Both the position numbers and the translations under genes were made by a program. A stretch of DNA of 32,000 nucleotides from Candidatus Pacearchaeota archaeon (lineage in GTDB: Archaea; Nanobdellota; Nanobdellia; Pacearchaeales; UBA284), in the NCBI GenBank assembly GCA_026016245.1, contig CP061211.1, positions 270,001-302,000 on the forward strand, given 5' to 3'. Below, in pieces: positions 2,307 to 31,035 of this stretch. Position 1 is the stretch's first letter; the number at the start of each line of letters is the position of its first letter. The notes beneath the pieces are model-generated. The model searched no databases. It worked only from the letters and a program-made list of their open reading frames with translations, and had not been told where the DNA came from.

Positions 2307-2420
2307 TGGGCCCGATGGGATTTGAACCCATGACCACTGGCTCTCTTAGAGCTATTCAATCCAAGAATGGATTGCGGCCATATAAGACCAGTGCTCTAAA
2401 CCAGGCTGAGCTACGGGCCC
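2307..2420 (-). tRNA. tRNA-Ile (anticodon UAU) with a 38-nt intron at the canonical 37/38 position
   Basis: Reverse complement: GGGCCCG-TA-GCTC-AGCCTGGTTTA-GAGC-A-CTGGT-CTTATA-[intron]-A-GCCAG-TGGTC-ATGGG-TTCAAAT-CCCAT-CGGGCCC-A. The acceptor and T-arm match the usual archaeal tRNA-Ile pattern. The exons total 76 nt including the discriminator. Confidence 0.8.
2343..2380 (-). other. tRNA intron (bulge-helix-bulge-like)
   Basis: Intron sequence is TGGCCG-CAATCCA-TTCT-TGGATTG-AATAGCTC-TAAG-AG. Anticodon-loop CTTA can pair with intron TAAG as a 4-bp central helix. Three-nt bulges (TA|T and AG|A) flank it and carry both splice sites. There is also an internal 7-bp hairpin, CAATCCA/TGGATTG. Confidence 0.7.
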
Positions 2421-5022: not shown

Positions 5023-5505
5023 TTAGAAAAAATCTTTTAGATTTTTTTGTCTAAGAATCTTCTGTAGAAAGTTATGAGCTCTAGTTAAGAGTTGCCTGAC
5101 ACCCTTAACTCTAATCAATTTTAGAGCTTCATCATAAGTGCACCATTTAAAATTTTCGTGCTCATGGCTTATTTTTACATTCCAGGTTTTTGTCTTAGCC
5201 AATAGGAAAACTGCTTCCTTCCTTCTTAACTGGCCTTTTAAACGATAAAACCACTGTTGAGTCTCTCGAAAATGCGGGATAAAAACCAAATCAGTTATAC
5301 CCACTTCTTCAAGAGTTTCACGAAAAGCAGTTTGTTCTTCTGTTTCTCCTGGCTCTACAAGACCTTTCACAAAACCCCAGTAAGTGGGATATTTCACAAG
5401 AAGATAGTTTGGTTGGTCTTTAGAAATATGAAATATTATGGCTCCACAACTAAGCTCGTATTTTACTTTTTGTTTTTTCATTTTTCTTTTCTTCTGTTCT
5501 GGCAT
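5023..5505 (-). CDS. Nudix hydrolase
   Basis: Nudix box GFVKGLVEPGETEEQTAFRETLEEVGI fits G-x5-E-x7-R-E-x2-E-E-x-G. The N-terminus is polybasic, and an internal Met at codon 9 is an alternative start. Confidence 0.85.
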   Translation of the reverse strand: MPEQKKRKMKKQKVKYELSCGAIIFHISKDQPNYLLVKYPTYWGFVKGLVEPGETEEQTAFRETLEEVGITDLVFIPHFRETQQWFYRLKGQLRRKEAVFLLAKTKTWNVKISHEHENFKWCTYDEALKLIRVKGVRQLLTRAHNFLQKILRQKNLKDFF

Positions 5506-5557
5506 TAAAAAACAGAAGAGAGAAGAGTTTTTAAAGTTTTAAGAGTTTAAAAAGAAT

Positions 5558-6001
5558 ATGATAAAATACAAACTCGCTACAGTAAAAGAGGCTTCTGGAA
5601 TTGCAAAGTTACTTCAAAAAAAGTATGGAAGATATTACAGACCAACAAAGTTTACACCGCAATTTGTTAAGGAAAGACTGAAAAGAAAAGAGGTATTCTA
5701 TGTGGTCACTATCGAGGACAAGAAAATTGTAGGAACTATAAGAGCAACTAAAGTAGATATTGATTTAGTAGAATTTAGACATGAAGTTTTTTCTGACTTA
5801 AAGATAGGAAAGGGACTAATAAAAAAGATGCTTTCAATCTTGAAGAAGAAACGTATGCGAAAAGTTGTTGCTAGAACCATCTCAACAGACAGACTTAACA
5901 ATAGAGTTTACAGAGGTTTGAGATTCAGGAAAGAAGGTTACTTTAAGGATCATTATAGAAAAGGAACGCACATAATCCAGTATGCAAGATTTTTAAGATA
6001 A
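5558..6001 (+). CDS. GNAT-family N-acetyltransferase (putative)
   Basis: 147 aa with a motif-A-like stretch, LKIGKGLIKKML, followed by ...RLNNRVYRGLRFRKEGY, a typical GNAT C-terminal pattern. A TATA-like TTTTTAAAG lies about 26 nt upstream of the ATG. Confidence 0.5.
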   Translation: MIKYKLATVKEASGIAKLLQKKYGRYYRPTKFTPQFVKERLKRKEVFYVVTIEDKKIVGTIRATKVDIDLVEFRHEVFSDLKIGKGLIKKMLSILKKKRMRKVVARTISTDRLNNRVYRGLRFRKEGYFKDHYRKGTHIIQYARFLR

Positions 6002-6946
6002 AAGCAGGCAATCCCCTGGTTTTTTATCAAATTTTAGTCTTATAAAGCTTGGTTCTTTTAGTTGTTTATCTTTTGTCATTTCTTGATATTTAACTTCTAC
6101 AATAAGCTCTGGTTTAATCCATGTCACTTCTTCTTTTATCTTATTTCTTTCCTCCTCACTTAGAGCTGGCTTGTCTGTTTTTAATTTCTTCAGTTTTTTC
6201 TTTATTTTTTTATTAAAACCTTGCTTAAGTGTCCCAACATAGATAATTTCTCCTTTTTCTGGAACATATGATGCCAGAATTAATGAATCAAAATGTTTTT
6301 CTTCCTCATTTTTTGTAGATCCAACAATGAGGGTATTGGTAGTATTGATATTTTGTATATTTAACCATGACCAGCTTCTTTTGCCTTGTTCATATATACT
6401 AGAAAGTTCTTTTGCTATCATACCACTTAATTCTCTCTCTTGAATTTGTTTCCATAATTCTTTGCCATTTGTTGTGTGGGAAGCTAGAGATATGAAAGGA
6501 CTATTTGTTATTATTTCTCCAAGAATTCTCTTTCTTTCCCCAAGAGATTTATTTACAAGAGTCTGATCATCCTTTTCTAGAATATCAAAAACAAATAATG
6601 TTGCTGGAACAGTTCTACTTTTTGAATTAATCGCTAGGGGATGATTTAACTGTTCTCTGTATTGTAATGAGCTATGGTTTGGCTTACCCTCCTTGTTTAA
6701 AATAGTAAGGACAGCATCAAGAACACAATCCTTGCAATTTATATTTCTAGGAATCTCAAGAAGTTCTGGATATTTGAATATTATATCTCTTCCCTTTCTA
6801 TTAACAAGCTCAATATCATTACCTTCCTTATAAATTAGAACTCTTATGCCGTCAAATTTAGGCTCAAATATGAAGCCGACAAGACTCTTACGATTAAGAA
6901 GATCTTTATCACCTAACTTTACGAGCATGACTTTATATTTTTCCAT
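5993..6946 (-). CDS. ATP-dependent DNA ligase, minimal two-domain form (adenylation + OB)
   Basis: Motif I is EPKFDGIR (lysine nucleophile), III is LFVFDIL, IV is SGMIAKE, V is LIVGSTKNEE..FDSLILASY, and VI is LKEPSFIRLKFDKKP. At 317 aa there is no room for an N-terminal DNA-binding domain. Confidence 0.8.
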   Translation of the reverse strand: MEKYKVMLVKLGDKDLLNRKSLVGFIFEPKFDGIRVLIYKEGNDIELVNRKGRDIIFKYPELLEIPRNINCKDCVLDAVLTILNKEGKPNHSSLQYREQLNHPLAINSKSRTVPATLFVFDILEKDDQTLVNKSLGERKRILGEIITNSPFISLASHTTNGKELWKQIQERELSGMIAKELSSIYEQGKRSWSWLNIQNINTTNTLIVGSTKNEEEKHFDSLILASYVPEKGEIIYVGTLKQGFNKKIKKKLKKLKTDKPALSEEERNKIKEEVTWIKPELIVEVKYQEMTKDKQLKEPSFIRLKFDKKPGDCLLLS

Positions 6947-6948
6947 TT

Positions 6949-7356
6949 CTATTTTTTAGAATTTTTTATTGAATAAAGAATATTAGATATATTTTCACAG
7001 TTTATTATTTTTGGGTTAAGTTCTTTAAGTAAATATCCAGGAGCTTTAGAGGGATCTGCTTCTTCTCCACAAGTTAAAAATTCCCATTGACAATAACATT
7101 TGTCATCTGTTCCTTTAGGATTATTGTTAGGAAAAGTATGAACTGCAACATGACTATAACCAATAACAGCAATACCTGTATAGGCCATACCATAATCTGT
7201 CCTAAATCCTTTTATAAATGGACCAGCCTTAAGTTCTGAATCAATTTCTTTTATTACATTTATAAGTAAATCCACTAATTTTTTTCTTTTACATCTTGGT
7301 TTAGAACACCAAAACTCAACAATAAGATGGTTTATTGATGGTCTCTTTTCATTCAT
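6949..7356 (-). CDS. S-adenosylmethionine decarboxylase-like (SpeH/PF02675-type pyruvoyl enzyme family) protein
   Basis: HLIVEFW, GIAVIGYSHVAVHTFPN and FLTCGEEADPSKA parallel the SpeH pattern H-L-x-x-E-F..., V-I-S-E-S-H-x-x-I-H-T-W-P-E and F-T-C-G. The usual self-cleavage dipeptide Glu-Ser is Tyr-Ser here. Confidence 0.65.
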   Translation of the reverse strand: MNEKRPSINHLIVEFWCSKPRCKRKKLVDLLINVIKEIDSELKAGPFIKGFRTDYGMAYTGIAVIGYSHVAVHTFPNNNPKGTDDKCYCQWEFLTCGEEADPSKAPGYLLKELNPKIINCENISNILYSIKNSKK

Positions 7357-7489
7357 TTTCTTCTCCTTTTTTCTTATAAAATAGGAAAATAAAATTTAAA
7401 AATCTTCTCGTGTTTGATTAAAAGTATATTATTAAAAACAACGGATAAATTGCCAAAAGATTTAAATATAAAAGGATTTTGAAAGAAAT

Positions 7490-7762
7490 ATGCCTCAAAA
7501 TTGTCCATGGTGCGGGAAAATTCTTGAAATAAAGACACTTGATTTAGGCAATACTCTAAAACAGATCTGTGGAAGGTGTGGTTTTAAAATTAAAGAATTC
7601 GAAAAGCCACAGCCACCAAAAGAAGAGCCTAAACCAGAGGTTGTAGAGGTTAAACAAGCAGAAATCCCAGTGGCAAAGCAGACGCCAGCATGGCCTTTTA
7701 TTCTTGGAGCTATAGTTCTAATAATCATAATTATAGCTCTTGTTAAGATCTTTCTAGTTTAA
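7490..7762 (+). CDS. Small zinc-ribbon protein with Pro/Glu-rich linker and C-terminal transmembrane anchor
   Basis: CPWCG...CGRCG is a four-Cys ribbon. It is followed by the linker KPQPPKEEPKPEVVE and a hydrophobic tail, WPFILGAIVLIIIIIALVKIFLV. A TATA-like GATTTAAATATA lies about 26 nt upstream. Confidence 0.5.
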   Translation: MPQNCPWCGKILEIKTLDLGNTLKQICGRCGFKIKEFEKPQPPKEEPKPEVVEVKQAEIPVAKQTPAWPFILGAIVLIIIIIALVKIFLV

Positions 7763-7781
7763 ACAGAAAGAATTCTTCTCT

Positions 7782-8132
7782 TTATTCAGCTTCTTCTTCA
7801 GGTTTTTCTTCAACGGTCTCAGCTTCAGCAGATGGAGCTTCTCCTTCTCCAATAACTTCTATCTTTCCTAATTTCCCTGTTGTAACTTGTTTCTCTCCTT
7901 GGAACTCTTTACAGAAACCATTTGTCAACTTTATTTTGTCTCCTTCTTTTACTCTGTCTATATCTTCGTTCCACAAAGACATATTTATTGTTCCAGTGTC
8001 ATCTTTGACAGTTGCTGTTGCCACACGAATAGGTCTCCCAAAACGAACAAATGTCCTAATCTCCCCTATTTCAGCAATTGTAGCCTCTTCTATGTCTGCT
8101 TTCTGACCGACTTTCAAATCCGCAATTTTCAT
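7782..8132 (-). CDS. Single OB-fold ssDNA-binding protein (SSB/RPA-like) with acidic C-terminal tail
   Basis: Shows the OB-fold pattern used by short archaeal SSB/RPA proteins (V..ATV.DDTGTINMSLWNEDI..VKEGDKIKLTNGF...G...). The tail is acidic (EAETVEEKPEEEAE). It sits next to the RFC genes. Confidence 0.6.
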   Translation of the reverse strand: MKIADLKVGQKADIEEATIAEIGEIRTFVRFGRPIRVATATVKDDTGTINMSLWNEDIDRVKEGDKIKLTNGFCKEFQGEKQVTTGKLGKIEVIGEGEAPSAEAETVEEKPEEEAE

Positions 8133-8169
8133 TTTAAATTCCTTTTTAATATTATGTAAAAATATGTTT

Positions 8170-9324
8170 TTAAAGGTTTGTAAAAGGGATATTATCTTGG
8201 AAAGCTATCTCTAGGAAAGGAAGCTCTTTATATGCTCTTTTTTTTGATGTGTGTATAATCTTAGCTAATTTTTCAGCAATTTCCTTTCTTTTTGCTTGTT
8301 TTTGTTTTACTATCCATATTTTTAATATCCTTGAAGGTGGTTTGTATGATGTAAAATCTGTTTTTGCTTCTTTTTTTGAATTAGAGATACCTTCAGTGAG
8401 CAAAGCATTTATGTAAACAAGAAAACGCCAGTGTTGCCATCTTCTTATCCTGCCTCTAAAAACATCTGCCTTGCTTAAAGCATCATAAGCCTTTGCCAGC
8501 TCTTCTCCTCGATACTCTAAAGGCAGGTTTTCATCAATCCATAAAAAAATATCATTAGTATTTATATTCTGCACATTATTAAAAGCCCTTAATGTTTTGT
8601 CTTTAGCTTTGAATATTTTTCTCAAGGCCTGGAAAATATTTTCATCTTTTTCCCTGGAACACAAGTCTAGCGCATCTTTTTTTGTTATCTCATTCTCTTT
8701 GCGTACAGAAGCCAAAATCTGCAAGTCAGTTATTGCTGCTCTGGCATCCCCTCTGGCCGTGATTGAAATAGTCTCAAAAGCATCACTGGAGATTTTTAAC
8801 TTTTCTTTTTTAGATGTTTTTTGTAAAAGAGAAACAATACTTTCTTTATCTAGAGCTTTAAGTTCAATAAACTGCGTTTTTGAACGTAGGGGCCTTAGTT
8901 TAGCTTGCCAGGCATCATTTGCCACAAGAATTATAGGATAGCAGGTTCCTATTATTAATCTCATAAGTTCGCTTAGGCCTCCCCTGTCTCTAGTTCCAGT
9001 TATCCCATCAATTTCATCCACAAGAATTATCTTTCCCTTAGAAAATAAACTTTTTTGTTGAATGGCCTGCCCAATAATTTCTTTTATTTGTTGTTTATTT
9101 CTAAAGTCAGAGGCATTTAATTCAATAATTTCATAATCAAATTCTGAAGCCAGGGCATAGGCTATAGAAGTTTTTCCACTGCCAGCAGGACCATATAACA
9201 AGACAGCTTTTCTCCTTTGTATAGGAAAATTTTTTACAAAATCAAGAATTTTCTTTCTAGCTTCGACATTTCCAACTATGTCTTTTAGTTTTCTAGGTCT
9301 ATATTTTTCAGTCCAAGGAATCAT
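8170..9324 (-). CDS. rfcL: Replication factor C large subunit
   Basis: PWTEKYRPRKLKDIVGN, Walker A LLYGPAGSGKTS, Walker B ILVDEIDG and the sensor region ARGDARAAITDLQ. The start lies 8 nt downstream of the RFC small subunit stop. Confidence 0.85.
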   Translation of the reverse strand: MIPWTEKYRPRKLKDIVGNVEARKKILDFVKNFPIQRRKAVLLYGPAGSGKTSIAYALASEFDYEIIELNASDFRNKQQIKEIIGQAIQQKSLFSKGKIILVDEIDGITGTRDRGGLSELMRLIIGTCYPIILVANDAWQAKLRPLRSKTQFIELKALDKESIVSLLQKTSKKEKLKISSDAFETISITARGDARAAITDLQILASVRKENEITKKDALDLCSREKDENIFQALRKIFKAKDKTLRAFNNVQNINTNDIFLWIDENLPLEYRGEELAKAYDALSKADVFRGRIRRWQHWRFLVYINALLTEGISNSKKEAKTDFTSYKPPSRILKIWIVKQKQAKRKEIAEKLAKIIHTSKKRAYKELPFLEIAFQDNIPFTNL

Positions 9325-9332
9325 CTTTTATT

Positions 9333-10301
9333 TTATTTTTTAGCAAGAATGAATGAAGCAAGCAAAGCCTCAAGTTGAACAAAATCATCGCTTCCCTCTA
9401 CTAATCTAAATTCTATTTCCCCACACTTCTCTACAAGTTTTAATTTTTCTTCTTCTTTAATATCTAAATTCCATATCTCTTTCTGAATTGCTTTAACTAT
9501 ATCTAATCCTCCTAGACCTTGTTTTAACATAACATCAAGAAGCCTGTTTCTGGCATCAAGGAAAGAGCCTTTTAATGCCATTTCTATGATAGTTTTTATA
9601 TCAGCTGGTTTAACCTCTGCAATAATCTCATATATTGTATTTTCATTTATGTTTTTTGATATACTTGCGCTGGCTTGAAGTATATTAATAACACGACGTA
9701 GATCGCCATTGCTCACATCATACAAGCCTTCTATAGCCTTATTATTGATCTTGAACTTCTCTTGCTTTGCGATTCTTTCAACAACTCTGGCCACATCTTT
9801 CTTGTCTAAAAGTTTGAATCTAAAAATACTGCACCTTGATTGTATAGGATCAATAATTTTACTACTGACATTACAACTGAGAATAAAACGACATGTTCCT
9901 GTAAACATTTCCATTGTTCTTCTTAATGCTTGTTGAGCTTCTTTTGTCAGAGCATCGCTTTCATCAAGAAAAATGATTTTGAAAGGCCCGCTAAAAGCCT
10001 TTGTTCTTGCAAAGCCCTTGACTTTTTGCCTTACTACATCTATTCCTCTTTCATCACTAGCATTCAACTCTAAAAAATTTTCATGCCATGCCTTACCAAA
10101 GAACTTTTTTGCTATAATTAAAGCAAGAGTTGTCTTGCCACTTCCTGCAGGACCTGAAAAAAGTAAATGTGGCATATTCTTATTCTGGACAAAGGCTCTC
10201 CCCCTCTTAACAATCTCAGAATGGCCAAGAACCTCAGAAAAGTCTTTAGGACGGTATTTCTCAGTCCAAATTACACTATCTTTAAATTCCTTAGCCTTCA
10301 T
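9333..10301 (-). CDS. rfcS: Replication factor C small subunit
   Basis: WTEKYRPKDFSEVLGH, Walker A FSGPAGSGKTT, LELNASDERGID, IIFLDESDALT, the SRC motif (PIQSRCSIFRF) and GDLRRVINILQ. The start is moved to the ATG at 10301 (MKAKEF...), which gives 322 aa and puts a TATA-like box (minus-strand ATTTATAAAA) about 25 nt upstream. The track's 5' extension to 10484 is low-complexity. Confidence 0.9.
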   Translation of the reverse strand: MKAKEFKDSVIWTEKYRPKDFSEVLGHSEIVKRGRAFVQNKNMPHLLFSGPAGSGKTTLALIIAKKFFGKAWHENFLELNASDERGIDVVRQKVKGFARTKAFSGPFKIIFLDESDALTKEAQQALRRTMEMFTGTCRFILSCNVSSKIIDPIQSRCSIFRFKLLDKKDVARVVERIAKQEKFKINNKAIEGLYDVSNGDLRRVINILQASASISKNINENTIYEIIAEVKPADIKTIIEMALKGSFLDARNRLLDVMLKQGLGGLDIVKAIQKEIWNLDIKEEEKLKLVEKCGEIEFRLVEGSDDFVQLEALLASFILAKK

Positions 10302-12338: not shown

Positions 12339-12361
12339 TCTTTAACATTTTTATCTTGTAT

Positions 12362-12445
12362 GCGGGAGTGTCGGAGTGGTCAAACGAGCAGGACTTAAGA
12401 TCCTGTGGGTTAGTCCCTGCGCAGGTTCGAATCCTGTCTCCCGCA
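12362..12445 (+). tRNA. tRNA-Leu (anticodon UAA), class II with long variable arm
   Basis: GCGGGAG-TG-TCGGAGTGGTCAAACGAG-CAGGA-CTTAAGA-TCCTG-TGGGTTAGTCCCTGC-GCAGG-TTCGAAT-CCTGT-CTCCCGC-A. The acceptor stem is perfect, the anticodon loop CT-TAA-GA gives UAA, and the long variable arm is typical of Leu. Confidence 0.9.
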
Positions 12446-12454
12446 TCAGCAAGC

Positions 12455-12461
12455 TTTAAAA
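12455..12461 (+). promoter_or_regulatory. TATA-like box for SRP RNA
   Basis: TTTAAAA is centred about 26 nt upstream of the predicted SRP RNA 5' end (12484). Confidence 0.4.
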
Positions 12462-12483
12462 GTTCTTTCTGCCTCTTTTTAGT

Positions 12484-12747
12484 GGGTAGGTTAGGCTGGC
12501 ACGCTAGCCCTGTGCCGTTTGTAAATGGGCTTTATGACAAGCTGCAAGAGGAGGCGTTATATGCTTGTTGGGGAGTCCTGACTTGGACGTTGAGGTCTTG
12601 TCCTGCTTGATCTTGCCCTAGCAAACCGGGTCAGTTCCGGAAGGAGGCAGCCCTAAGTTAGAGTTAAGATGCTTGTAGGGTTGCAAGGCTGAGGAAGAGT
12701 TAGGGTAGCTTTCTAGTAAGTATAGAAGCAAATCCTCGAACCTGCCC
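12484..12747 (+). ncRNA. Signal recognition particle RNA (7S/SRP RNA)
   Basis: Contains the near-universal helix-8 motif GGGTCAGTTCCGGAAGGAGGCAGCC (compare GGUCAGGUCCGGAAGGAAGCAGCC). The 5' end reads GGGTAGGTTAGGCTGG, an Alu-domain-like start. 5' GGGTAGG pairs with 3' CCTGCCC, which is followed by TTTT. The region is much more GC-rich than its flanks. Ends are approximate, within a few nt. Confidence 0.8.
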
Positions 12748-24859: not shown

Positions 24860-26989
24860 ATGAAATCAGCAGAGCTCAAGAAGAGATATATAGAATTTTT
24901 CAAAAAGAAAGGACATAAAGAAATTCCTAATGCTAGTCTTATTCCAGAACATGATCCAAGTGTGTTATTCACGACAGCTGGAATGCATCCTCTAGTTCCT
25001 TTCCTTCTTGGACAGAAACATCCACAAGGCAAAAGGTTAGTTAATGCTCAAAAATGTTTAAGAACACAAGATATAGATGAAGTAGGCAATCCAATGCATC
25101 TCTCTTTTTTCGAAATGTTAGGAAACTGGTCATTAGGAGATTATTGGAAAAAGGAAGCAACTGAATACAGTTATGAATTTTTAACAAAAATTCTGAAGAT
25201 TGATCCAGAAAAATTATATATCACATGTTTTGCTGGAGATAAGGATGTTCCTAGAGATGAAGAGACAGCAAAAATCTGGCAATCTTTAGGCATTCCAAGA
25301 GAAAGAATTTACTTTTTGAGCAAGGAAGAAAATTGGTGGGGGCCTGTAGGAGAAACTGGGCCTTGCGGACCTGATACAGAGATGTTTGTTGATACAGGAA
25401 AAAAATCCTGTAGTAAGAATTGCCGTCCAGGATGTCCTTGTGGTAAATATTTTGAAATCTGGAATGATGTTTTTATGCAATACAACAAGACAAAAGTAAA
25501 AGCAATTCTCATCGATGCAATTCATTGTTTGTTTGACGAAAATAGAAAGATAAATAAAGAATTATTAGATTCGTTGATAACTTACGATATGTCTTTAATA
25601 ATTGTTACTAATGCTAATCTCGAAGACAAGAAAAACAAACCTCTTACAGAATTAATAAATAAATTTAAAGAGAAAATAGAAATTTTTACTTGTTTTAATA
25701 ATCCAAGTAAAAAAGATTCCAAATATTTTGAAATGTTATTAAAAGAATATAATCTAAAACCAGACGAAGTTATTTATTTTGATCATTCAACAGACAATAT
25801 AAACTCTGCTAGAAAAATAGGTATTAACTCAAAATTATACAAATCTCCTAAACAAATCAAAAAATTCATAGAAGAAAACCTATATTATTACCAATCACTA
25901 AAACAAAAAAATGTTGATACAGGGATGGGGGTTGAAAGAACAGTTACAATACTTCAGGGGGAAAAATCTGTTTATGAAATTAAAATACTAAAGCCAATAA
26001 TGGATAAAATTAAAGAACTAGCTAAGATAAAAGAGCCAGATGAAAAACAACTAAGAAGTATGAGGATAATTACTGACCATATCAGAGCCTCTGTATTTAT
26101 ACTTGGAGATGAAAATTCTGTTGTTCCTAGCAATGTTGATCAAGGTTATATTTTAAGGAGATTTATCAGAAGAGCTATGAGATATGGAAGGCTTCTAGGA
26201 ATGCAAAATTTTATTCAAGAAATAGCAAAAATTGTTATAAAAATTAACAAAGATTATCCTCTAAAGAAAAAGGAAAAATTTATTTTATCTGAATTAAAAA
26301 AAGATGAGGAAAAATTCAGAAAAACTCTTGAAAAAGGCCTTAATAAATTTAATAGGATGGCGGTAGATAAGAAAATCTCAGGTAAAGAAGCCTTTCTTTT
26401 GTTCCAGTCTTATGGTTTTCCAATAGAAATGACAAAGGAACTAGCAGAAGAAAAAAATATTGAGATTGATGAAAAAGGATTTTATCTTGAATATAAAAAA
26501 CATCAAGAAATATCAAGAGTTGGTGCTGAAAAGAAATTCAAAGGTGGTTTATCAGATGCAAGTTATGAAACAACAAAACTTCATACAGCTGCTCATCTTC
26601 TATTATATGCATTAAGAAAAGCTTTAAATCCAGATATTGTGCAAAAAGGTTCTAATATCACCCCAGAAAGAATAAGGTTTGATTTTAATTTTGACAGAAA
26701 ATTAACAGATGATGAAATAAAGAAAGTAGAGAAAATAGTTAATGATAAAATCAAGCAAGAAATTGAAGTTGTGAGAAAAGAGATGCCTGTTACAGAGGCA
26801 AAAAAAATAGCAAAATCACCTTTTGAATATAAAAGCAAGATTGTTTCTGTTTATATTATTGATGATTGCATTGAAATTTGTATGGGGCCTCATGTTAAAA
26901 ATACAAAAGAGTTAGGAAAGTTTAAAATAACAAAACAAGAGGCTGTTGCGGGCGGAGTTAGAAGAATTAGGGCTGTTTTAGAATCTTAA
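24860..26989 (+). CDS. alaS: Alanyl-tRNA synthetase, bacterial-type core, short form without a C-Ala domain, carrying an internal HAD-like insertion
   Basis: The N-terminus (MKSAELKKRYIEFFKKKGHKEIPNASLIPEHDPSVLFTTAGM...FFEMLGNWSLGDYWK...GPCGPDTEMF...FEIWNDVFMQYN...VDTGMGVER) matches the bacterial AlaRS pattern. Editing-domain motifs HTAAHLL (HxxxH) and CMGPH (CxxxH) are present. Confidence 0.9.
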   Translation: MKSAELKKRYIEFFKKKGHKEIPNASLIPEHDPSVLFTTAGMHPLVPFLLGQKHPQGKRLVNAQKCLRTQDIDEVGNPMHLSFFEMLGNWSLGDYWKKEATEYSYEFLTKILKIDPEKLYITCFAGDKDVPRDEETAKIWQSLGIPRERIYFLSKEENWWGPVGETGPCGPDTEMFVDTGKKSCSKNCRPGCPCGKYFEIWNDVFMQYNKTKVKAILIDAIHCLFDENRKINKELLDSLITYDMSLIIVTNANLEDKKNKPLTELINKFKEKIEIFTCFNNPSKKDSKYFEMLLKEYNLKPDEVIYFDHSTDNINSARKIGINSKLYKSPKQIKKFIEENLYYYQSLKQKNVDTGMGVERTVTILQGEKSVYEIKILKPIMDKIKELAKIKEPDEKQLRSMRIITDHIRASVFILGDENSVVPSNVDQGYILRRFIRRAMRYGRLLGMQNFIQEIAKIVIKINKDYPLKKKEKFILSELKKDEEKFRKTLEKGLNKFNRMAVDKKISGKEAFLLFQSYGFPIEMTKELAEEKNIEIDEKGFYLEYKKHQEISRVGAEKKFKGGLSDASYETTKLHTAAHLLLYALRKALNPDIVQKGSNITPERIRFDFNFDRKLTDDEIKKVEKIVNDKIKQEIEVVRKEMPVTEAKKIAKSPFEYKSKIVSVYIIDDCIEICMGPHVKNTKELGKFKITKQEAVAGGVRRIRAVLES
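25496..25894 (+). other. In-frame HAD-superfamily-like domain inserted in AlaRS (about residues 213-345)
   Basis: KAILIDAIHCLFD is motif-I-like (Asp nucleophile, D+2 position is Ile, as in D-x-Y-G-T-L dehalogenase-type variants). LIIVTNA matches motif II, PSKKDSKYFEMLLKEYNLKPDEVIYFDHSTDNINSARKIGI matches motifs III/IV, partly degenerate. It replaces the short loop that bacterial AlaRS has between FMQ(F/Y)N and the L-P-x-K-x-(V/I)-DTGMG segment. Confidence 0.6.
26966..26984. repeat. Direct repeat copy 1 (ATTAGGGCTGTTTTAGAAT) at the live alaS 3' end
   Basis: A 19/19 identity with 27985-28003. It extends to 23 nt with one mismatch (AAG[A/G]ATTAGGG...). Confidence 0.85.
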
Positions 26990-27874
26990 TCTCTCTTTTT
27001 TTAACATAGATATCAAAAATCTGACAAATGATCCCAAATTGCCAGTTCTGTGCATTTTTTGTAAAACTTGATAATACTTGAACTTTCTTTTTTTTGGAAT
27101 ATTTATCATAGGATAGTGACTCTTATGCATTATAAAATTCATTAATAATCTCCCAACTCTGCCATTACCATCAACAAAGGGATGTATTCTTTCAAATTCT
27201 GTATGAAAATAAGAAGCTAAAACTAGCGGATGCAGTTTCTTTTTATTTGTACCATACCATCTTAATAATTTTGCCATTTCTCTAGGAACATCTTGCGGTT
27301 TAGGTGGGATTGATCTTCCAACAAATACCTGAATAGTTCTATATCTGCCTATTTGAGAAATCAAATCTTGTCTTAGCGCATTTATAATAACCAGCTTATG
27401 AATCTCTAAAATAAATTCTTTTGTCAGGTCTTTTTTATAATTTAAGATATAGTCAAATGCTTTTTTATGATTTATTGTTTCATTAATCTCCCTCAAGGAT
27501 TTTGATTTTGGAACAATGCCTTCAAATAGCAAATAAGATGTTTCTGATAAAGTTAGGGTATTTCCTTCTATACCTGTTGAGTCATAAGTAAATAAAGAAC
27601 AAAATGCCTCATATCTATTTTCATAATTTTCCTTGGGTTCTTTAGAAAAATCCCTTTTTATTTTTTCTAAAAATTCGGTTTCTTCTTTTGTCAAGATTAC
27701 ACTAAAAACATTCAACTTTTTATCTGCATCCTTTTCTTTTCTTTTAAGCTCTTCTCTTGTCAGATTAACCCCGAGATATATTCTTTCTTTTTTTACTCGC
27801 TTTCCTTCTCTTATTGCCTTAGCCCTATAATAATATTTTTTTTTGTTTTTTTCTTGAATTTCTGTATGAACCAT
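26978..27874 (-). CDS. Fic domain protein (putative AMP-transferase) with an internal inhibitory-helix motif
   Basis: The canonical Fic motif HPFVDGNGRVGR (HPFx[D/E]GNGRxxR) is present. An upstream STGIEG fits the autoinhibitory [S/T]xxxE[G/N] motif. Its last codons and stop overlap the alaS 3' end by 12 nt. Confidence 0.9.
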   Translation of the reverse strand: MVHTEIQEKNKKKYYYRAKAIREGKRVKKERIYLGVNLTREELKRKEKDADKKLNVFSVILTKEETEFLEKIKRDFSKEPKENYENRYEAFCSLFTYDSTGIEGNTLTLSETSYLLFEGIVPKSKSLREINETINHKKAFDYILNYKKDLTKEFILEIHKLVIINALRQDLISQIGRYRTIQVFVGRSIPPKPQDVPREMAKLLRWYGTNKKKLHPLVLASYFHTEFERIHPFVDGNGRVGRLLMNFIMHKSHYPMINIPKKRKFKYYQVLQKMHRTGNLGSFVRFLISMLKKERLRF

Positions 27875-28005: not shown

Positions 28006-31000
28006 TTACTCAATATAAATTGCTGGTTTTCCTGGTTTAGCTTTCTTTGCTTTCTTTTTTGGATCATAAGTTATTTTGTTAGATGTTTGAAAATCAACTT
28101 TACAATTAAATTCCTTTTCAAGTTCTTTTGGATTATAAACCTTAAGCTCTTTAGGGATAACATAAACATATATTCCTTTGGGTCTTGTTCCTAATATTTT
28201 AACAATCTGTCTTATATCTTGCTTTAACTTTTCTTGGATTTCTTCTTCTTTCTCAAATGCAAGATTAATCTTTTTTTCATTGTATTTTGGCCATGATTCA
28301 AGTGAAATGAATGTCTTATTCCATTGATGCCATAATTCTTCTGTTATGTGTGGACAGAAAGGATGAAGCATTTTCAAAAAAGCTTCTGCTGTTTTTTTAT
28401 CAATTTCTGTGAAATAATCAAATAATTTTCTGATTTTTATCACAGCAAGATTATATCTAAATTCCTTTATATCCTGAGTTACTTCTTTTATTGTCTTGTT
28501 TAATTTGCTTTCTAATCTAGGATCTGATTTTCCAAATTTAAGTTTTGTGAAATAGCCCATAACTCTATTAATAAAACGCAAACTTCCTTCAACACCTTTA
28601 TCACCCCATTTAAGGTCTTTATCAGGGCTAGCCATTGAAACTAAAAATAATCTGGCAGTATCAATTCCATATTTTTTACTGACTTCTTCTGGCAAAACAA
28701 CATTCCCATATGATTTAGACATTTTTCTGCCATCAGGGCCATGTAATACACCCTGATTAAACAGTTTTAGAGTAGGTTCATCAATATTGAGCAAACCTAA
28801 ATCTCGCAAAAATTTAGTATAGAATCTGAAATAAATAAGATGGCCTGTAGCATGTTCTTTTCCACCAATATATTGATCAATTGGCATCCAATATTTTACT
28901 TTTTTCTTATCGAAGATTTTATTTTTGTTTTTAGGATCACAATATCTCAAGAAATACCAAGAAGAATTAACAAATGTATCCATAGTATCTGTCTCTCTTT
29001 TTGCATCTTTTTTACATTTAGGACATTTGACTTTAATCCAGGTTTTTACAGTTTCAAGAGGATTTCCTTTTCCAAATTTAACTTTTTCAGGAAGTTTTAT
29101 TGGTAAATCTTTTTCAGGAACAGGAACAATACCACATTTATCACAATAAATTATAGGAATAGGGGTGCCCCAATATCTCTGCCTGCTTATAAGCCAATCT
29201 TTTAATTTATATTGAATTGTATGTTTGCCTTTGTTTTTTTGTTGTAAGGATTTTGAAATTTCAATGATTGCTTTTTCACTTGTCATCTTGTTAAATTTTC
29301 CAGAATTAACAAGAATACCATAATCAACATAAGCTTGCTTCATTGTTTTCTCACTTAACTTCTTATCTTTTTTTGGCTGTATGACAACTCTAATAGGAAT
29401 TTTGTATTTCTTGGCAAATTCAAAATCTCTCTGATCATGAGCAGGAACAGCCATTACCATTCCTGATCCATACTCTGCAAGAACAAAATTTCCTACATAA
29501 ACAGGAACTTTTTCATTATTAATTGGGTTTATTGCATATTTTCCTATAAAAACCCCTTCCTTGTCCATCTTATCAATATCTTCTTGCTTAATTCCTCTTA
29601 ACTTGCTAACAAAACTCATGACTTCTTTCTCTTGTTTTGTTCCTTTCACTAATTCTGGAAGTTCTGGATGCTGAGCAGATATAACCATGAAAGTCACACC
29701 AAAAATAGTATCTGCTCTTGTTGTGAATATTGGCCATTTTTTTCTTGAAATTACTTCTTTTAATAATTCTGGAAATTCTTGTGTTCCCATATGTTTCTCA
29801 AGAAAATGTCCTTTGTCTTTTAATGTAGTTGGGGGGACATCTAATTTCTCAGAAATTATCCTTACACTTTTTCTTATAGATTCATTTTCATTATTTGAAA
29901 CAAAGATAATAATTTCTCCAATATTCTCTTTAATTTTATTGTCAATTTTAAATCTCAACAAATCTTCAAAGGGCGTTTTTTCCTTTGCATAAGCAATTGC
30001 AGGAGCAATCAAGATTAATTTCTTTATCCTTTTCTTTGTTTCTCCTAACCACCTAATCAAAAAACCTCCTCCCCCGCTATGTCCAATTAAAACACTATTT
30101 TCATTAATATTCAAATTTTTAAATTCTTTCTTCCAATCATTATATTTTGGATTCCAGTTATTAGGCATTAATGGAGCTTCTGTTTTAATTCCTTTTTTTT
30201 CAAGTTGTTTCTTAATCCAAGGAATCCAATGTCTTTCATTTTGCGGAGGTTCTCCTCTAGCTAACTTTTCTTTATCTTTTTTATTTACTCCATGAACAAC
30301 CACGCAGTTAATATCCTTATCCTCAATCTCAAAATCAATATCAACACCATGACTCTTGCCTATCCAATATTTTTGCATTAACTTAATATCTTCTGGCCAA
30401 TCCTTTAGTTTGTCAATTTTATCATAAAGCTCTGAAGCATATTTTGTAATTTTGAAAAACCACTGCTCTAATTGCTTTATCTCAACTTCTGTATCTTCAT
30501 GACGCCAACATTTTCCATTAATAACTTGCTCGTTTGCCAGAACAGTTTTACATCTTGGACAGTAATTAACAGGAGCTTTCTTTCTGTAAGCTATTCCCTT
30601 CTTAAACATCTGCAAGAAAATCCATTGATCCCACTTGTAATAACTAAGATCATGAGTCATAACTAAGCGAGACCAATCATAACTTATGCCAAGACCTTTC
30701 TGTTGTTTGATAAAGTTGGAAATTGCTCTATCTGTATATTTTTTAGGATGAATTTTTTCTTTGATAGCTGCATTTTCTGCTGGTAATCCTAAAGAATCAT
30801 AGCCCATTGGATAAAGAACATTATAGCCTTGCATTCTCATAAATCTAGCATAAATATCCCCAATAGTATAATTAAAAGCATGACCCATATGCAAGCCATA
30901 AGCAGAAGGATATGGAAACATCTCTAATACATAGAATTTCTTCTTTCCCTTCTTCTCACTAACAACAAAGATTTTTTTCTTTTCCCACTCTTGCTGCCAC

Positions 31001-31035
31001 TTTTTTTCGATGGCTTGGAAGTTAAATCTTGCCAT
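28006..31035 (-). CDS. leuS: Leucyl-tRNA synthetase, bacterial-type, carrying an internal alpha/beta serine-hydrolase-like insertion
   Basis: HMGH is present (PYPSAYGLHMGHAFNY). GLPAENAA, the WIGKSHGVDIDF...FTTRADTIFG entry into CP1, AVPAHDQRDFEFA, RDWLISRQRYWGTPIP and a KMSKS loop (RKMSKSYGN) are colinear with bacterial LeuRS such as the E. coli enzyme. Confidence 0.92.
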   Translation of the reverse strand: MARFNFQAIEKKWQQEWEKKKIFVVSEKKGKKKFYVLEMFPYPSAYGLHMGHAFNYTIGDIYARFMRMQGYNVLYPMGYDSLGLPAENAAIKEKIHPKKYTDRAISNFIKQQKGLGISYDWSRLVMTHDLSYYKWDQWIFLQMFKKGIAYRKKAPVNYCPRCKTVLANEQVINGKCWRHEDTEVEIKQLEQWFFKITKYASELYDKIDKLKDWPEDIKLMQKYWIGKSHGVDIDFEIEDKDINCVVVHGVNKKDKEKLARGEPPQNERHWIPWIKKQLEKKGIKTEAPLMPNNWNPKYNDWKKEFKNLNINENSVLIGHSGGGGFLIRWLGETKKRIKKLILIAPAIAYAKEKTPFEDLLRFKIDNKIKENIGEIIIFVSNNENESIRKSVRIISEKLDVPPTTLKDKGHFLEKHMGTQEFPELLKEVISRKKWPIFTTRADTIFGVTFMVISAQHPELPELVKGTKQEKEVMSFVSKLRGIKQEDIDKMDKEGVFIGKYAINPINNEKVPVYVGNFVLAEYGSGMVMAVPAHDQRDFEFAKKYKIPIRVVIQPKKDKKLSEKTMKQAYVDYGILVNSGKFNKMTSEKAIIEISKSLQQKNKGKHTIQYKLKDWLISRQRYWGTPIPIIYCDKCGIVPVPEKDLPIKLPEKVKFGKGNPLETVKTWIKVKCPKCKKDAKRETDTMDTFVNSSWYFLRYCDPKNKNKIFDKKKVKYWMPIDQYIGGKEHATGHLIYFRFYTKFLRDLGLLNIDEPTLKLFNQGVLHGPDGRKMSKSYGNVVLPEEVSKKYGIDTARLFLVSMASPDKDLKWGDKGVEGSLRFINRVMGYFTKLKFGKSDPRLESKLNKTIKEVTQDIKEFRYNLAVIKIRKLFDYFTEIDKKTAEAFLKMLHPFCPHITEELWHQWNKTFISLESWPKYNEKKINLAFEKEEEIQEKLKQDIRQIVKILGTRPKGIYVYVIPKELKVYNPKELEKEFNCKVDFQTSNKITYDPKKKAKKAKPGKPAIYIE
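29740..30312 (-). other. In-frame YdeN/RBBP9-type (PF06821-like) serine hydrolase domain inserted in LeuRS (about residues 242-432)
   Basis: VVVHG...HWIPWIKKQLEKKGI...PLMPN..NPKYNDW...SVLIGHSGGGGFLIRWL...IKKLILIAP...IIIFVSNNENES...KDKGHFLEKHMG.QEFPELL parallels the YdeN family layout, with a GHSxG nucleophile elbow and a GHF histidine. It sits between FEIEDKD and WPIFTTRADT, where E. coli LeuRS has only a short hairpin loop. Confidence 0.65.

Follow-up and report, generated by a model that had tools for sequence, protein, structure and literature searches.

Proofreading by aminoacyl-tRNA synthetases (aaRSs) is well covered in textbooks, with a set of editing folds regarded as closed, and we know of no aaRS editing domain that is a Ser–His–acid alpha/beta hydrolase. 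Depending on the lineage, an editing module can lie within the synthetase or be a separate protein, as is the case for the INS domain of ProRS with YbaK/ProXp and for the editing domain of AlaRS with AlaX. Among serine hydrolases of the RBBP9/YdeN family, RBBP9 acts as a serine aminopeptidase and yields adducts with Leu/Ile (PMC8866121). Acyl-enzymes of RBBP9 have been documented with Leu/Ile, Met, Phe, Tyr and Trp. The enzyme is also described as activating valacyclovir, the valyl ester of a nucleoside analogue (Shenoy et al. 2020, as cited in PMC7730578). In microcin C immunity, aminoacyl-nucleotides that poison an aaRS are acted on by MccF, a serine peptidase, by MccE2, a GNAT, and by MccH, a nucleotide hydrolase of the HIT family, not NUDIX (PMC8323819). 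Here we describe a 32,000-nucleotide window from the genome of a tiny DPANN archaeon of Candidatus Pacearchaeota, in which a leucyl-tRNA synthetase (LeuRS) carries, at the entrance to its CP1 editing domain, a complete and apparently active RBBP9/YdeN-family serine hydrolase.

The leuS gene occupies positions 28006–31035 on the minus strand, to which all features below also belong, and is a single uninterrupted open reading frame for a bacterial-type LeuRS of 1009 residues. The full-length product scored 889.7 bits on TIGR00396 (leuS_bact; cut-off 548.4), with the match broken by the insert near profile position ~238, and is 100% identical to the NCBI protein 'leucine--tRNA ligase [Candidatus Pacearchaeota archaeon]' from a metagenome-assembled genome. 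HMGH (30880–30891), KMSKS, TTRADT (29707–29724) and HDQRD (29425–29439) are all present in its translation, that is, the class I signature together with the motifs of the CP1 editing domain (PF13603, residues 431–597; 29245–29745). Both the synthetic and the CP1 editing motifs are thus untouched by the insertion. The closest unfused relative, protein P0123 encoded at locus L091, shares 86% identity with the LeuRS core of the window, and the DNA alignment of the two loci contains one clean in-frame gap of 576 nt (29745–30320) between flanks that are both 75–93% identical. At this point the relative reads FEIDGKEWPIFTT and the window reads FEIEDKD-[hydrolase]-KKWPIFTT. The insertion falls in the tight turn of a beta-hairpin, FEI-DGKE-WPIF, which leads from the LeuRS catalytic body into CP1. 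In the full-length model (pLDDT 87.5, pTM 0.76), the hydrolase sits between the two strands of this hairpin, KSHGVDIDFEI (residues 227–237; 30325–30357) and KWPIFT (residues 433–438; 29722–29739). These data bear out the original prediction of a continuous leuS frame, of an insertion at the entry to the editing domain and of intact canonical CP1 motifs; the boundaries it gave for the insert, 29740–30312, were right within a few bases, and all the motifs that it quoted (VVVHG, HWIPWIKKQL, LIGHSGGG, GHF, SNNENE, TTRADT and AHDQRD) were found in the translation.

A precise in-frame block in a metagenome-assembled genome might suggest an artefact or a non-expressed element, such as a chimeric assembly, a pseudogene or an intervening sequence (intein or intron) that is spliced out. 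More than 100 independent assemblies share the identical junction, and because the same architecture is seen in so many independently assembled sequences, neither chance nor an assembly chimera accounts for it. The frame contains no stop codons, GC content is unchanged across the inserted block, and the catalytic residues show clear purifying selection. No Pfam match to intein, Hint or homing-endonuclease domains was obtained for the window LeuRS, and the insert, which starts DKD-INC and ends ISRKK-W, lacks the N-terminal Cys/Ser and the C-terminal His-Asn of inteins. No convincing flanking repeats or target duplications were seen around the cassette, and no imported flanks were seen in the window's own allele, in which LeuRS matches close relatives up to both junctions. 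We consider the chance that the insert is an artefact to be practically negligible; chimera, pseudogene and intein were rejected on the recurrent junction, the open frame and the missing intein features.

Residues 242–432 (29740–30312) taken alone matched the Ser_hydrolase profile PF06821 with 47.1 bits (cut-off 22, E 3.3e-12) over profile positions 11–167 of 172, and the full LeuRS protein did so with 42.5 bits; the match covers LeuRS residues 266–425 (29761–30240). The AlphaFold model of the domain (pLDDT 96.5, pTM 0.93) predicts that the insert folds as an independent alpha/beta hydrolase. With this model, Foldseek returned YdeN (1uxo) as the best hit (TM 0.80, E 7.6e-12) and RBBP9 (7oex) as the next (TM 0.78, E 2.5e-11), other folds reaching TM 0.65 or lower; the sequence matches of the insert in the PDB were also YdeN and RBBP9. 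None of the known editing folds considered (CP1, INS/YbaK, AlaX/ThrRS-N2, DTD and PheRS B3/B4) was matched by the insert, which in both sequence and fold hit only alpha/beta-hydrolase families. The YdeN/RBBP9-like assignment in the original prediction is thus supported by profile, fold and triad alike, and its counter-scenario, a lineage-specific CP1 sub-domain without hydrolase homology, is contradicted by the profile score.

The putative nucleophile, Ser320 (30076–30078), lies in a G318-H-S320-G-G322 elbow and aligns with RBBP9 Ser75; all 80 class-1 and all 31 class-2 fused inserts have Ser in this column, as do 98% of free-standing proteins. The predicted catalytic base, His410 of GHF (29806–29808), is 100% conserved in the class-1 fused, class-2 fused and free-standing groups and aligns with the GHF of RBBP9 and YdeN. 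The acid is probably Glu383 (29887–29889), the fourth residue of SNNE, whose aligned counterparts are the catalytic Asp138 in RBBP9 and, in YdeN, the second Asp of SKDD; in this column, 98% of the fused and likewise 98% of the free-standing homologues have Asp or Glu. All three codons were checked. The earlier remark that the acid region holds no Asp is literally true, but the triad is not defective on that account, since Glu fills the conserved acid position; a degenerate triad was rejected on the same alignment. After the first strand, His248-Gly249 (30289–30294), to which family resemblance assigns a likely oxyanion-hole role, is conserved in 99% (His) and 100% (Gly) of 80 fused homologues. 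Collectively, more than 100 fused homologues and over 100 free-standing ones retain the putative triad Ser320–His410–Glu383, and the insert is a complete family member, predicted to be active.

Residues 346–401 (29833–30000) form a hypervariable segment of the cassette, with a mean pairwise identity of 0.25–0.33 compared with 0.69 around the nucleophile. The start of this segment is homologous to the part of RBBP9 in which Tyr99 and Glu108, residues of the alpha-amine and side-chain pocket, lie (PMC8866121). The alpha-amine ligands of RBBP9, Ser76, Tyr99 and Glu108, are not recognisably conserved in the insert, in a loop where the alignment is unreliable. Like the RBBP9/YdeN family (PF06821; PDB 2qs9, 7oex and 1uxo), the domain has a lid-less fold (TM 0.78–0.80) of ~190 residues with the nucleophile, acid and histidine in the same order. 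It differs in having Glu as its acid (Asp or Glu across its subfamily), in an identity to solved members of only 19–24%, in being embedded in LeuRS, to which its relatives are genetically tied, and in its membership of a subfamily specific to DPANN/CPR, which has conserved aromatics of its own (W270, W273, Y298, W301 and F325).

In 111 retrieved LeuRS sequences, the hydrolase occupies the same hairpin as in the window. This form is common in the LeuRSs of Pace-, Woese- and Nanoarchaeota and occurs in those of a few CPR bacteria, the DPANN/CPR survey proposed earlier thus having turned up the same insert well beyond the window; other relatives bear the hydrolase at three further LeuRS sites, and in DPANN archaea its locations include a second CP1 loop. 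Free-standing proteins of ~190 aa are 40–59% identical to the insert over 98% of its length, and the position of their ATG is ATT (Ile) in the fused block of the window. Both fused and separate forms were found: at site A, at site B, and as genes upstream or downstream of leuS. TTRxDT and HDxxD are present in 114 of the 117 hydrolase-bearing and in all 49 hydrolase-free LeuRS relatives, and the CP1 motifs are invariant in 54 fused LeuRSs. These counts led us to reject the idea that the hydrolase replaces a decayed CP1 site. Public databases list these proteins simply as 'leucine--tRNA ligase' or as 'class I tRNA ligase family protein'.

Linkage to leuS was found at 33 of 44 species-representative archaeal loci. 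The closest free-standing relatives of the insert are P0001, P0004, P0008 and P0018, whose genes each overlap the end of the upstream gene, by 4 nt for the first three and by about 60 nt for P0018. Immediately upstream of P0001, P0008 and P0018 lies leuS, and the gene preceding P0004 is an unannotated, contig-truncated ORF in a leuS-alaS-like synteny. The insert thus has the extent of an entire gene that elsewhere stands alone, most often immediately downstream of leuS. The hydrolase is not adjacent to leuS in three genomes with an unfused leuS, and the closest relative (L091/P0123) is without it next to leuS. Most CPR homologues are also not leuS-linked, and no other conserved neighbor was found for the unlinked hydrolase genes. 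We found no virus-borne copies in IMG/VR. Fusions to other partners also occur: P0067 joins the hydrolase to GCV_T, and P0070 has a HAD-like tail.

Two near-identical LeuRS pairs have cores that are 94.5% and 94.4% identical and inserts that are only 52% and 53% identical, respectively, and syntenic loci with a DNA identity of 85–98% drop to about 50% exactly across the cassette. Core and insert distances are correlated with r = 0.12 only. On a hydrolase tree, fused and free forms are mixed, with 32 state changes compared with 79 for shuffled labels; the tree was built by neighbor-joining on 188 columns, and the exact number of events is soft. Inserts of ~52% identity in near-identical cores imply exchange of the cassette by recombination, and a single ancient, vertically inherited insertion was rejected on these inserts, the low correlation and the intermixed forms. 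These sequence comparisons indicate that the hydrolase is an accessory, exchangeable module, swapped by recombination between otherwise near-identical leuS alleles. In its patchy distribution and in being either inserted or separate, the cassette resembles ProRS INS/YbaK/ProXp and AlaRS/AlaX. Its fold and mechanism are unrelated to theirs, its host already has a complete CP1 editing site, and its deacylase role is only proposed. We know of no description of swapping between near-identical alleles, as seen for the cassette, for INS or AlaX.

Other enzyme domains are found in the synthetases of this clade. LeuRS relatives also bear NUDIX and GNAT inserts, both called catalytically intact, and one relative carries a GNAT and the hydrolase at the same hairpin; the AlaRS of the window has a HAD insert. 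Such inserts could reflect a general tolerance of insertions and not a specific function. A described counterpart is NCBIfam NF040702, 'isoleucine--tRNA ligase, N-acetyltransferase domain-containing', which likewise joins a class Ia synthetase to a domain of a small-molecule-modifying enzyme. Its domain type and insertion site differ from those of the window LeuRS, which matches NF040702 weakly (85 bits versus a cut-off of 1999) and is not a member.

Based on these findings, we propose that the module is a LeuRS-tethered hydrolase of aminoacyl bonds that acts in accessory quality control, a reading to which we assign a probability of about 45%. We propose this because the family has a single characterized chemistry, in which the carbonyl of a hydrophobic amino acid with a free alpha-amine is attacked. 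In the suggested mechanism, Ser320 would take the aminoacyl group from its ester on the 3' end of a LeuRS-bound aminoacyl-tRNA, mischarged or unwanted, or alternatively from an aminoacyl-adenylate-like compound. Water would then free the amino acid from the acyl-enzyme. The variable cassette segment may set which aminoacyl group is accepted, and the module would thereby provide, beside CP1, an extra quality-control step of variable specificity. CP1 is intact whether or not the hydrolase is present, which leaves no evident editing gap for the module to fill, and since a leuS-adjacent copy is absent in close relatives and most CPR homologues are unlinked, the enzyme can presumably work alone. 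The tight linkage to leuS together with the aminoacyl-bond chemistry of RBBP9 nonetheless favors a LeuRS-related over an unrelated role.

An unrelated role would make the module a passenger, that is, an independent housekeeping esterase or aminopeptidase that, in a streamlined genome, rides in or directly behind a highly expressed essential gene for its expression, with the CP1 loops as tolerant landing sites. The solitary CPR homologues, the close relatives whose leuS neighborhood is without the module, the unrelated NUDIX, GNAT and HAD domains in aaRS genes of the clade and the fusions in P0067 and P0070 would all fit such a passenger. Yet the 33 of 44 archaeal loci are tied to leuS in four arrangements, when chance adjacency to one given gene is well under 1%, and no further aaRS gene and no other highly expressed gene is found repeatedly next to the hydrolase. 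Moreover, the overlap of start and stop codons implies that the hydrolase is co-translated with LeuRS, and each independent placement needs two in-frame junctions, which would be hard to fix without benefit. We therefore regard a mere passenger as unlikely.

Two further roles would keep the link to LeuRS. An aminopeptidase that clips N-terminal hydrophobic residues off imported peptides could feed leucine to LeuRS in an auxotroph, for which the Leu/Ile adducts of RBBP9 (PMC8866121) offer a precedent. The triad is conserved, and a producer of a substrate fused or adjacent to its consumer is a classic pattern. Such a supply role seems quite improbable to us, as free leucine diffuses and tethering would gain little, and as it leaves unexplained the hypervariability of the cassette and its swapping between near-identical strains, the catalytically intact NUDIX and GNAT grafts on the same CP1, and the placement at the editing domain instead of a terminus. 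The patchy, swappable, hypervariable cassette also resembles resistance or defense loci, and the hydrolase could act as built-in immunity, cleaving the aminoacyl part off a toxic leucyl-nucleotide analogue at its target LeuRS while NUDIX and GNAT perform complementary detoxification. A natural leucyl-adenylate mimic of this kind, TM84 of agrocin 84, targets LeuRS (PMC8323819), and the three grafted classes (serine hydrolase, nucleotide hydrolase and GNAT) broadly parallel the microcin C immunity enzymes. This resemblance is conceptual only: neither sequence nor fold revealed homology to MccF, MccH or MccE2, which are free-standing enzymes encoded in toxin gene clusters (PMC8323819). No toxin or biosynthetic cluster was seen near the LeuRS locus. 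No such inhibitor is known from DPANN habitats, and the idea is entirely inferential, which leaves immunity a very doubtful explanation.

Extending the proposal of a tethered aminoacyl-bond hydrolase to the other grafts, we speculate that the LeuRS of DPANN, and of some CPR, might be a platform on which exchangeable cassettes of the serine hydrolase, NUDIX and GNAT types dock and act on aminoacyl-nucleotide or aminoacyl-tRNA ligands. The hydrolase would then be either the first serine-hydrolase (acyl-enzyme) proofreading module of an aaRS or target-integrated immunity against leucyl-adenylate mimics, with strain-level swapping tuning its specificity. We put this forward as a bold and rather unlikely generalization. 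A full-text literature search for LeuRSs or other aaRSs with an alpha/beta hydrolase or NUDIX domain in DPANN, its coverage excluding subscription journals, returned nothing relevant. The earlier view that no LeuRS of this architecture had been described thus stands as far as published papers were found, although the architecture is no one-off, being carried by more than 100 LeuRSs. The broader pattern of a hydrolase inside, beside or away from leuS that is exchanged as a cassette was apparently likewise not described in the literature found.

The feature lies in sequences that are already public and has apparently gone unremarked until now. An apparently active serine hydrolase that is conserved at the editing entrance of LeuRS across a whole archaeal radiation would add a directly testable new player to synthetase proofreading. 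It also represents an unusually clean natural domain insertion, in which a whole gene occurs inside, beside or away from its partner, and, as a module swapped by recombination within an essential gene, it helps to explain how enzymes with several domains arise. Should the module prove to deacylate tRNA or to break down adenylate analogues, the consequences would extend to the fidelity of translation, the amino-acid economy of ultra-small symbionts and natural resistance against antibiotics that target LeuRS.

The leuS gene of the window (28006-31035, minus strand) is a single open frame of 1009 codons, and its product is a bacterial-type LeuRS that matches TIGR00396 with 889.7 bits (cut-off, 548.4) in two pieces, with the break at profile position ~238. 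Pfam recognises the class I catalytic domain, the LeuRS editing domain (CP1; residues 431-597) and the anticodon-binding domain, and places PF06821 (Ser_hydrolase), encoded on the same minus strand, at residues 266-425 between the catalytic and editing domains. A 100%-identical protein at NCBI is annotated as 'MAG: leucine--tRNA ligase [Candidatus Pacearchaeota archaeon]'. Aligned with the locus (L091) that encodes the closest relative, P0123 (core identity, 86%), the DNA is 75-93% identical through the upstream S49 peptidase gene and the whole of leuS; the sole break is one 576-nt in-frame gap at 29745-30320. At the junction, P0123 has FEIDGKEWPIFTTRPDT versus FEIEDKD, the hydrolase and KKWPIFTTRADT in the window. 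GC content is ~27-34% across the window, with no step at the insert. The open frame and the clean gap bear out the in-frame insertion that the original prediction had read from the sequence. The insert is real, and the probability that it is an artefact is negligible.

On their own, residues 242-432 score 47.1 bits against PF06821 (cut-off, 22), and among solved structures the nearest by sequence are YdeN of Bacillus subtilis (E = 2.7e-10) and RBBP9 of human (E = 1e-5). When this segment was modelled with AlphaFold from 31 homologues (pLDDT 96.5), the top structural matches were YdeN (1uxo, TM 0.80) and RBBP9 (7oex/2qs9, TM 0.76-0.78), with all other alpha/beta hydrolases far behind. In the full-length model (pLDDT 87.5, pTM 0.76), the hydrolase sits at the tip of a hairpin formed by strands 227-237 and 433-438. 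Both the YdeN/RBBP9-like assignment and the predicted position at the entry to the editing domain are thereby upheld: the inserted domain is a PF06821 member on every criterion that could be tested, and the host enzyme is a bacterial-type LeuRS.

All 80 'class-1' inserts and all 31 of the more divergent 'class-2' inserts have Ser320 (GHSGG) and His410 (GHF), and among 125 free-standing homologues the equivalent residues are fully or almost fully conserved. HMMER alignments pair Glu383 (in SNNE) with Asp138, the catalytic acid of RBBP9 (S-T-D-D), and with the second Asp in the S-K-D-D of YdeN; 98% of the fused sequences, and likewise 98% of the free-standing ones, have Asp or Glu in this column, whereas both of the columns just before it alternate freely between Asp and Asn. 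The alignment with Asp138 and the composition of the column therefore identify the triad as Ser320-His410-Glu383. The original prediction had misread SNNENE as lacking the acid Asp; a missing acid is ruled out. As modelled, the insert is shown to be a hydrolase that folds on its own and keeps a conserved triad. The CP1 motifs TTRxDT and HDxRD, which had been described as intact, are invariant in 54 aligned fused LeuRSs, and the editing motifs are kept in 114 of 117 hydrolase-bearing and 49 of 49 hydrolase-free relatives. Because they are intact with or without the hydrolase, the latter is an addition and not a replacement.

Searching with the insert alone retrieved ~170 proteins, each ~190 aa long, from CPR/Patescibacteria as well as Pace-, Woese- and Nanoarchaeota, with 40-59% identity over 98% of the insert. 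These free-standing proteins start MNCIIIHG and end FPELLKEVL; the window counterpart starts DKD-INCVVVHG and ends FPELLKEVISRKK-WPIF, with an ATT codon at the position of the free gene's ATG. The insert is a whole gene. The closest free-standing relatives lie directly downstream of another gene and overlap its end, by 4 nt (P0001, P0004 and P0008) or about 60 nt (P0018). Upstream of P0001, P0008 and P0018, this gene is leuS; P0004 instead follows an unannotated ORF that the contig end truncates, on a contig with otherwise leuS-alaS-like synteny. The P0018 genome has a LeuRS core 82% identical to that of the window and the same gene order (S49 peptidase, then leuS). Other arrangements were also seen: P0070 (315 aa) joins the hydrolase to a C-terminal HAD-like domain, recognised by eye with no Pfam call, and P0067 (319 aa) has it behind a GCV_T fragment. 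A woesearchaeotal locus without leuS (L009, ~5306-9674) carries a second, divergent alpha/beta-hydrolase paralogue ~1 kb upstream of the hydrolase and, by eye from sequence, a putative glycyl-tRNA synthetase ORF 0.6 kb downstream.

Of the 120 best LeuRS relatives, the majority measure ~1000-1035 aa and contain PF06821, about one in four is ~820 aa long and lacks it, and a further group of 1100-1380 aa contains NUDIX as well. An exhaustive search of 1.8 billion cluster representatives returned many ~1000-1200-aa proteins with a contiguous flank-insert-flank match at 32-61% identity. With a profile built from the free-standing proteins, the domain was placed in 145 long proteins. The survey of DPANN and CPR LeuRSs that had been suggested recovered the same insert, 111 of the 145 carrying it exactly at the window's hairpin (site A); others have it in a surface loop of CP1 (site B, reference position ~360-375), beyond CP1 (~440), near ~640, or twice. 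The usual occupant of site B is a NUDIX domain whose NUDIX box is intact. The feature is much more widespread and dynamic than one odd gene.

The CP1-loop NUDIX domain (PF00293; for example, P0132 residues 567-690, P0218 375-495 and P0151 583-702) retains the box GX5EX7REUXEEXGU in most copies and occurs with or without the hairpin hydrolase. Among P0353 (residues ~306-603), P0191, P0208 and P0280, one LeuRS has a GNAT acetyltransferase and the hydrolase in tandem at site A, and several have two hydrolase copies, at the hairpin and ~640, in tandem or at the N-terminus. When one genome per species was scanned and the best 80 loci were kept, 33 of 44 archaeal-label loci were leuS-linked (20 at site A, 4 at site B, 6 directly downstream of leuS and 3 upstream), against only 3 of 36 bacterial-label loci, all fused. 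A few LeuRSs with CPR labels carry the hydrolase, those of Patescibacteria group bacterium S145_42 and Parcubacteria group bacterium M6-OD1-1 (L047 and L069, site A) and Patescibacteria FK_Sedi_B_Bin.274 (L036, CP1 loop); these LeuRSs are 38-53% identical to the archaeal core, and their bacterial origin is by label only. Within the best 80 loci, the leuS-unlinked hydrolases shared no other neighbour. No relatives were found on viral contigs.

Core and insert distances are uncoupled (r = 0.12, 75 enzymes), which argues against shared inheritance, under which they should track. Cores 94.5%, 94.4% and 80% identical (P0160/P0178, P0156/P0210 and window/P0122) carry inserts of 52%, 53% and 49.5% identity, and P0129/P0140 share 67% in the core and 87% in the insert. 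Sliding identity, ~100% up to the hairpin, falls there to 20-60% and rises again at WPIFTT. Over their syntenic 6-kb loci, P0156 and P0210 match at 85-98% DNA identity save for ~570 nt at ~50%, the stretch of the cassette. Neither of the two cores closest to that of the window is fused: in one genome the hydrolase gene follows just after leuS, and in the other no hydrolase adjoins leuS, which directly abuts alaS. Two further unfused genomes have no hydrolase near leuS. In a neighbour-joining tree of the hydrolases, fused and free forms are interleaved. The cassette is thus accessory and exchanged. Its variation is focused in LeuRS residues 346-401 (mean pairwise identity 0.25-0.33, versus 0.69 around the nucleophile). 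In the alignment, the first part of this segment matches the loop of RBBP9 that bears Tyr99 and Glu108, ligands of the substrate alpha-amine (PMC8866121).

A 23-nt direct repeat, 87% identical, is present at 29643-29665 and 29757-29779, its copies encoding the conserved C-terminal EFPELLK of the hydrolase and LeuRS ELPELVK, 38 codons downstream. The repeat could be fortuitous, or it could provide microhomology that matters for recombination. The tract exchanged between P0160 and P0178 runs past the junction about as far as this repeat.

Directly downstream of leuS lies a gene for a 298-aa Fic/DOC-domain protein (26978-27874, minus strand; PF02661, 85 bits) with a weak match to 'mobile mystery protein B'. 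At this position relatives have either the free-standing hydrolase or a leuS that abuts alaS, so what lies between leuS and alaS appears to be variable. The 709-aa AlaRS (24860-26989, plus strand) contains a HAD-type hydrolase segment (~residues 209-339; HAD_2, 26.5 bits, cut-off 23.8) that splits tRNA-synt_2c in two. The AlaRSs of close relatives (581-586 aa) lack it, making this a second synthetase in the window with an inserted enzyme domain. Elsewhere in the window are an archaeal SRP RNA (12484-12747, plus strand) with tRNA-Leu(UAA) directly upstream, the pair spanning 12361-12747, and a 114-nt tRNA match (2307-2420, minus strand) found by Rfam and not by ARAGORN, presumably intron-containing. 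The host is an archaeon.

At the 3' end of an aminoacyl-tRNA, the amino acid is ester-linked to adenosine and its alpha-amine is free. RBBP9, the only well-characterised family member, forms acyl-enzyme intermediates with the single hydrophobic amino acids Leu/Ile, Met, Phe, Tyr and Trp (PMC8866121), and is cited as hydrolysing valacyclovir, in which valine is esterified to a nucleoside analogue (Shenoy et al. 2020, cited in PMC7730578). This chemistry, set beside the aminoacyl ester, therefore favours an aminoacyl-bond hydrolase. We propose, with a probability of about 0.45 and a chemistry that we infer by analogy, that the cassette is a LeuRS-tethered enzyme that would clear some aminoacyl species outside the reach of CP1, its variable segment setting the specificity.

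Alternatively, the cassette could be immunity built into the target LeuRS against leucyl-adenylate mimics. The serine hydrolase, nucleotide hydrolase and GNAT found on these LeuRSs broadly parallel the microcin C immunity enzymes MccF, MccH and MccE2, and LeuRS has a natural poison in TM84 (PMC8323819); we consider this reading improbable. A leucine-releasing aminopeptidase is doubtful, and a passenger domain that uses leuS for its expression is unlikely, if less so than either.

In ProRS, the hydrolytic module occurs either inserted in the synthetase, as the INS domain, or free, as YbaK/ProXp. This is the closest analogue of the LeuRS-hydrolase system, in which the module is likewise inserted or free; however, fold and mechanism differ, and the LeuRS module is a putative deacylase at most. 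No known editing fold matched the insert by sequence or structural search. In line with the earlier view that no such LeuRS had been described, full-text searches outside subscription journals found no paper on a DPANN or CPR LeuRS, or other aminoacyl-tRNA synthetase, into which an alpha/beta hydrolase or NUDIX domain is inserted. The LeuRS-hydrolase system is a synthetase with an accessory hydrolytic module, and these data show a hydrolase that is tethered at the CP1 entrance and genetically coupled to LeuRS, and that is both dispensable and exchangeable.
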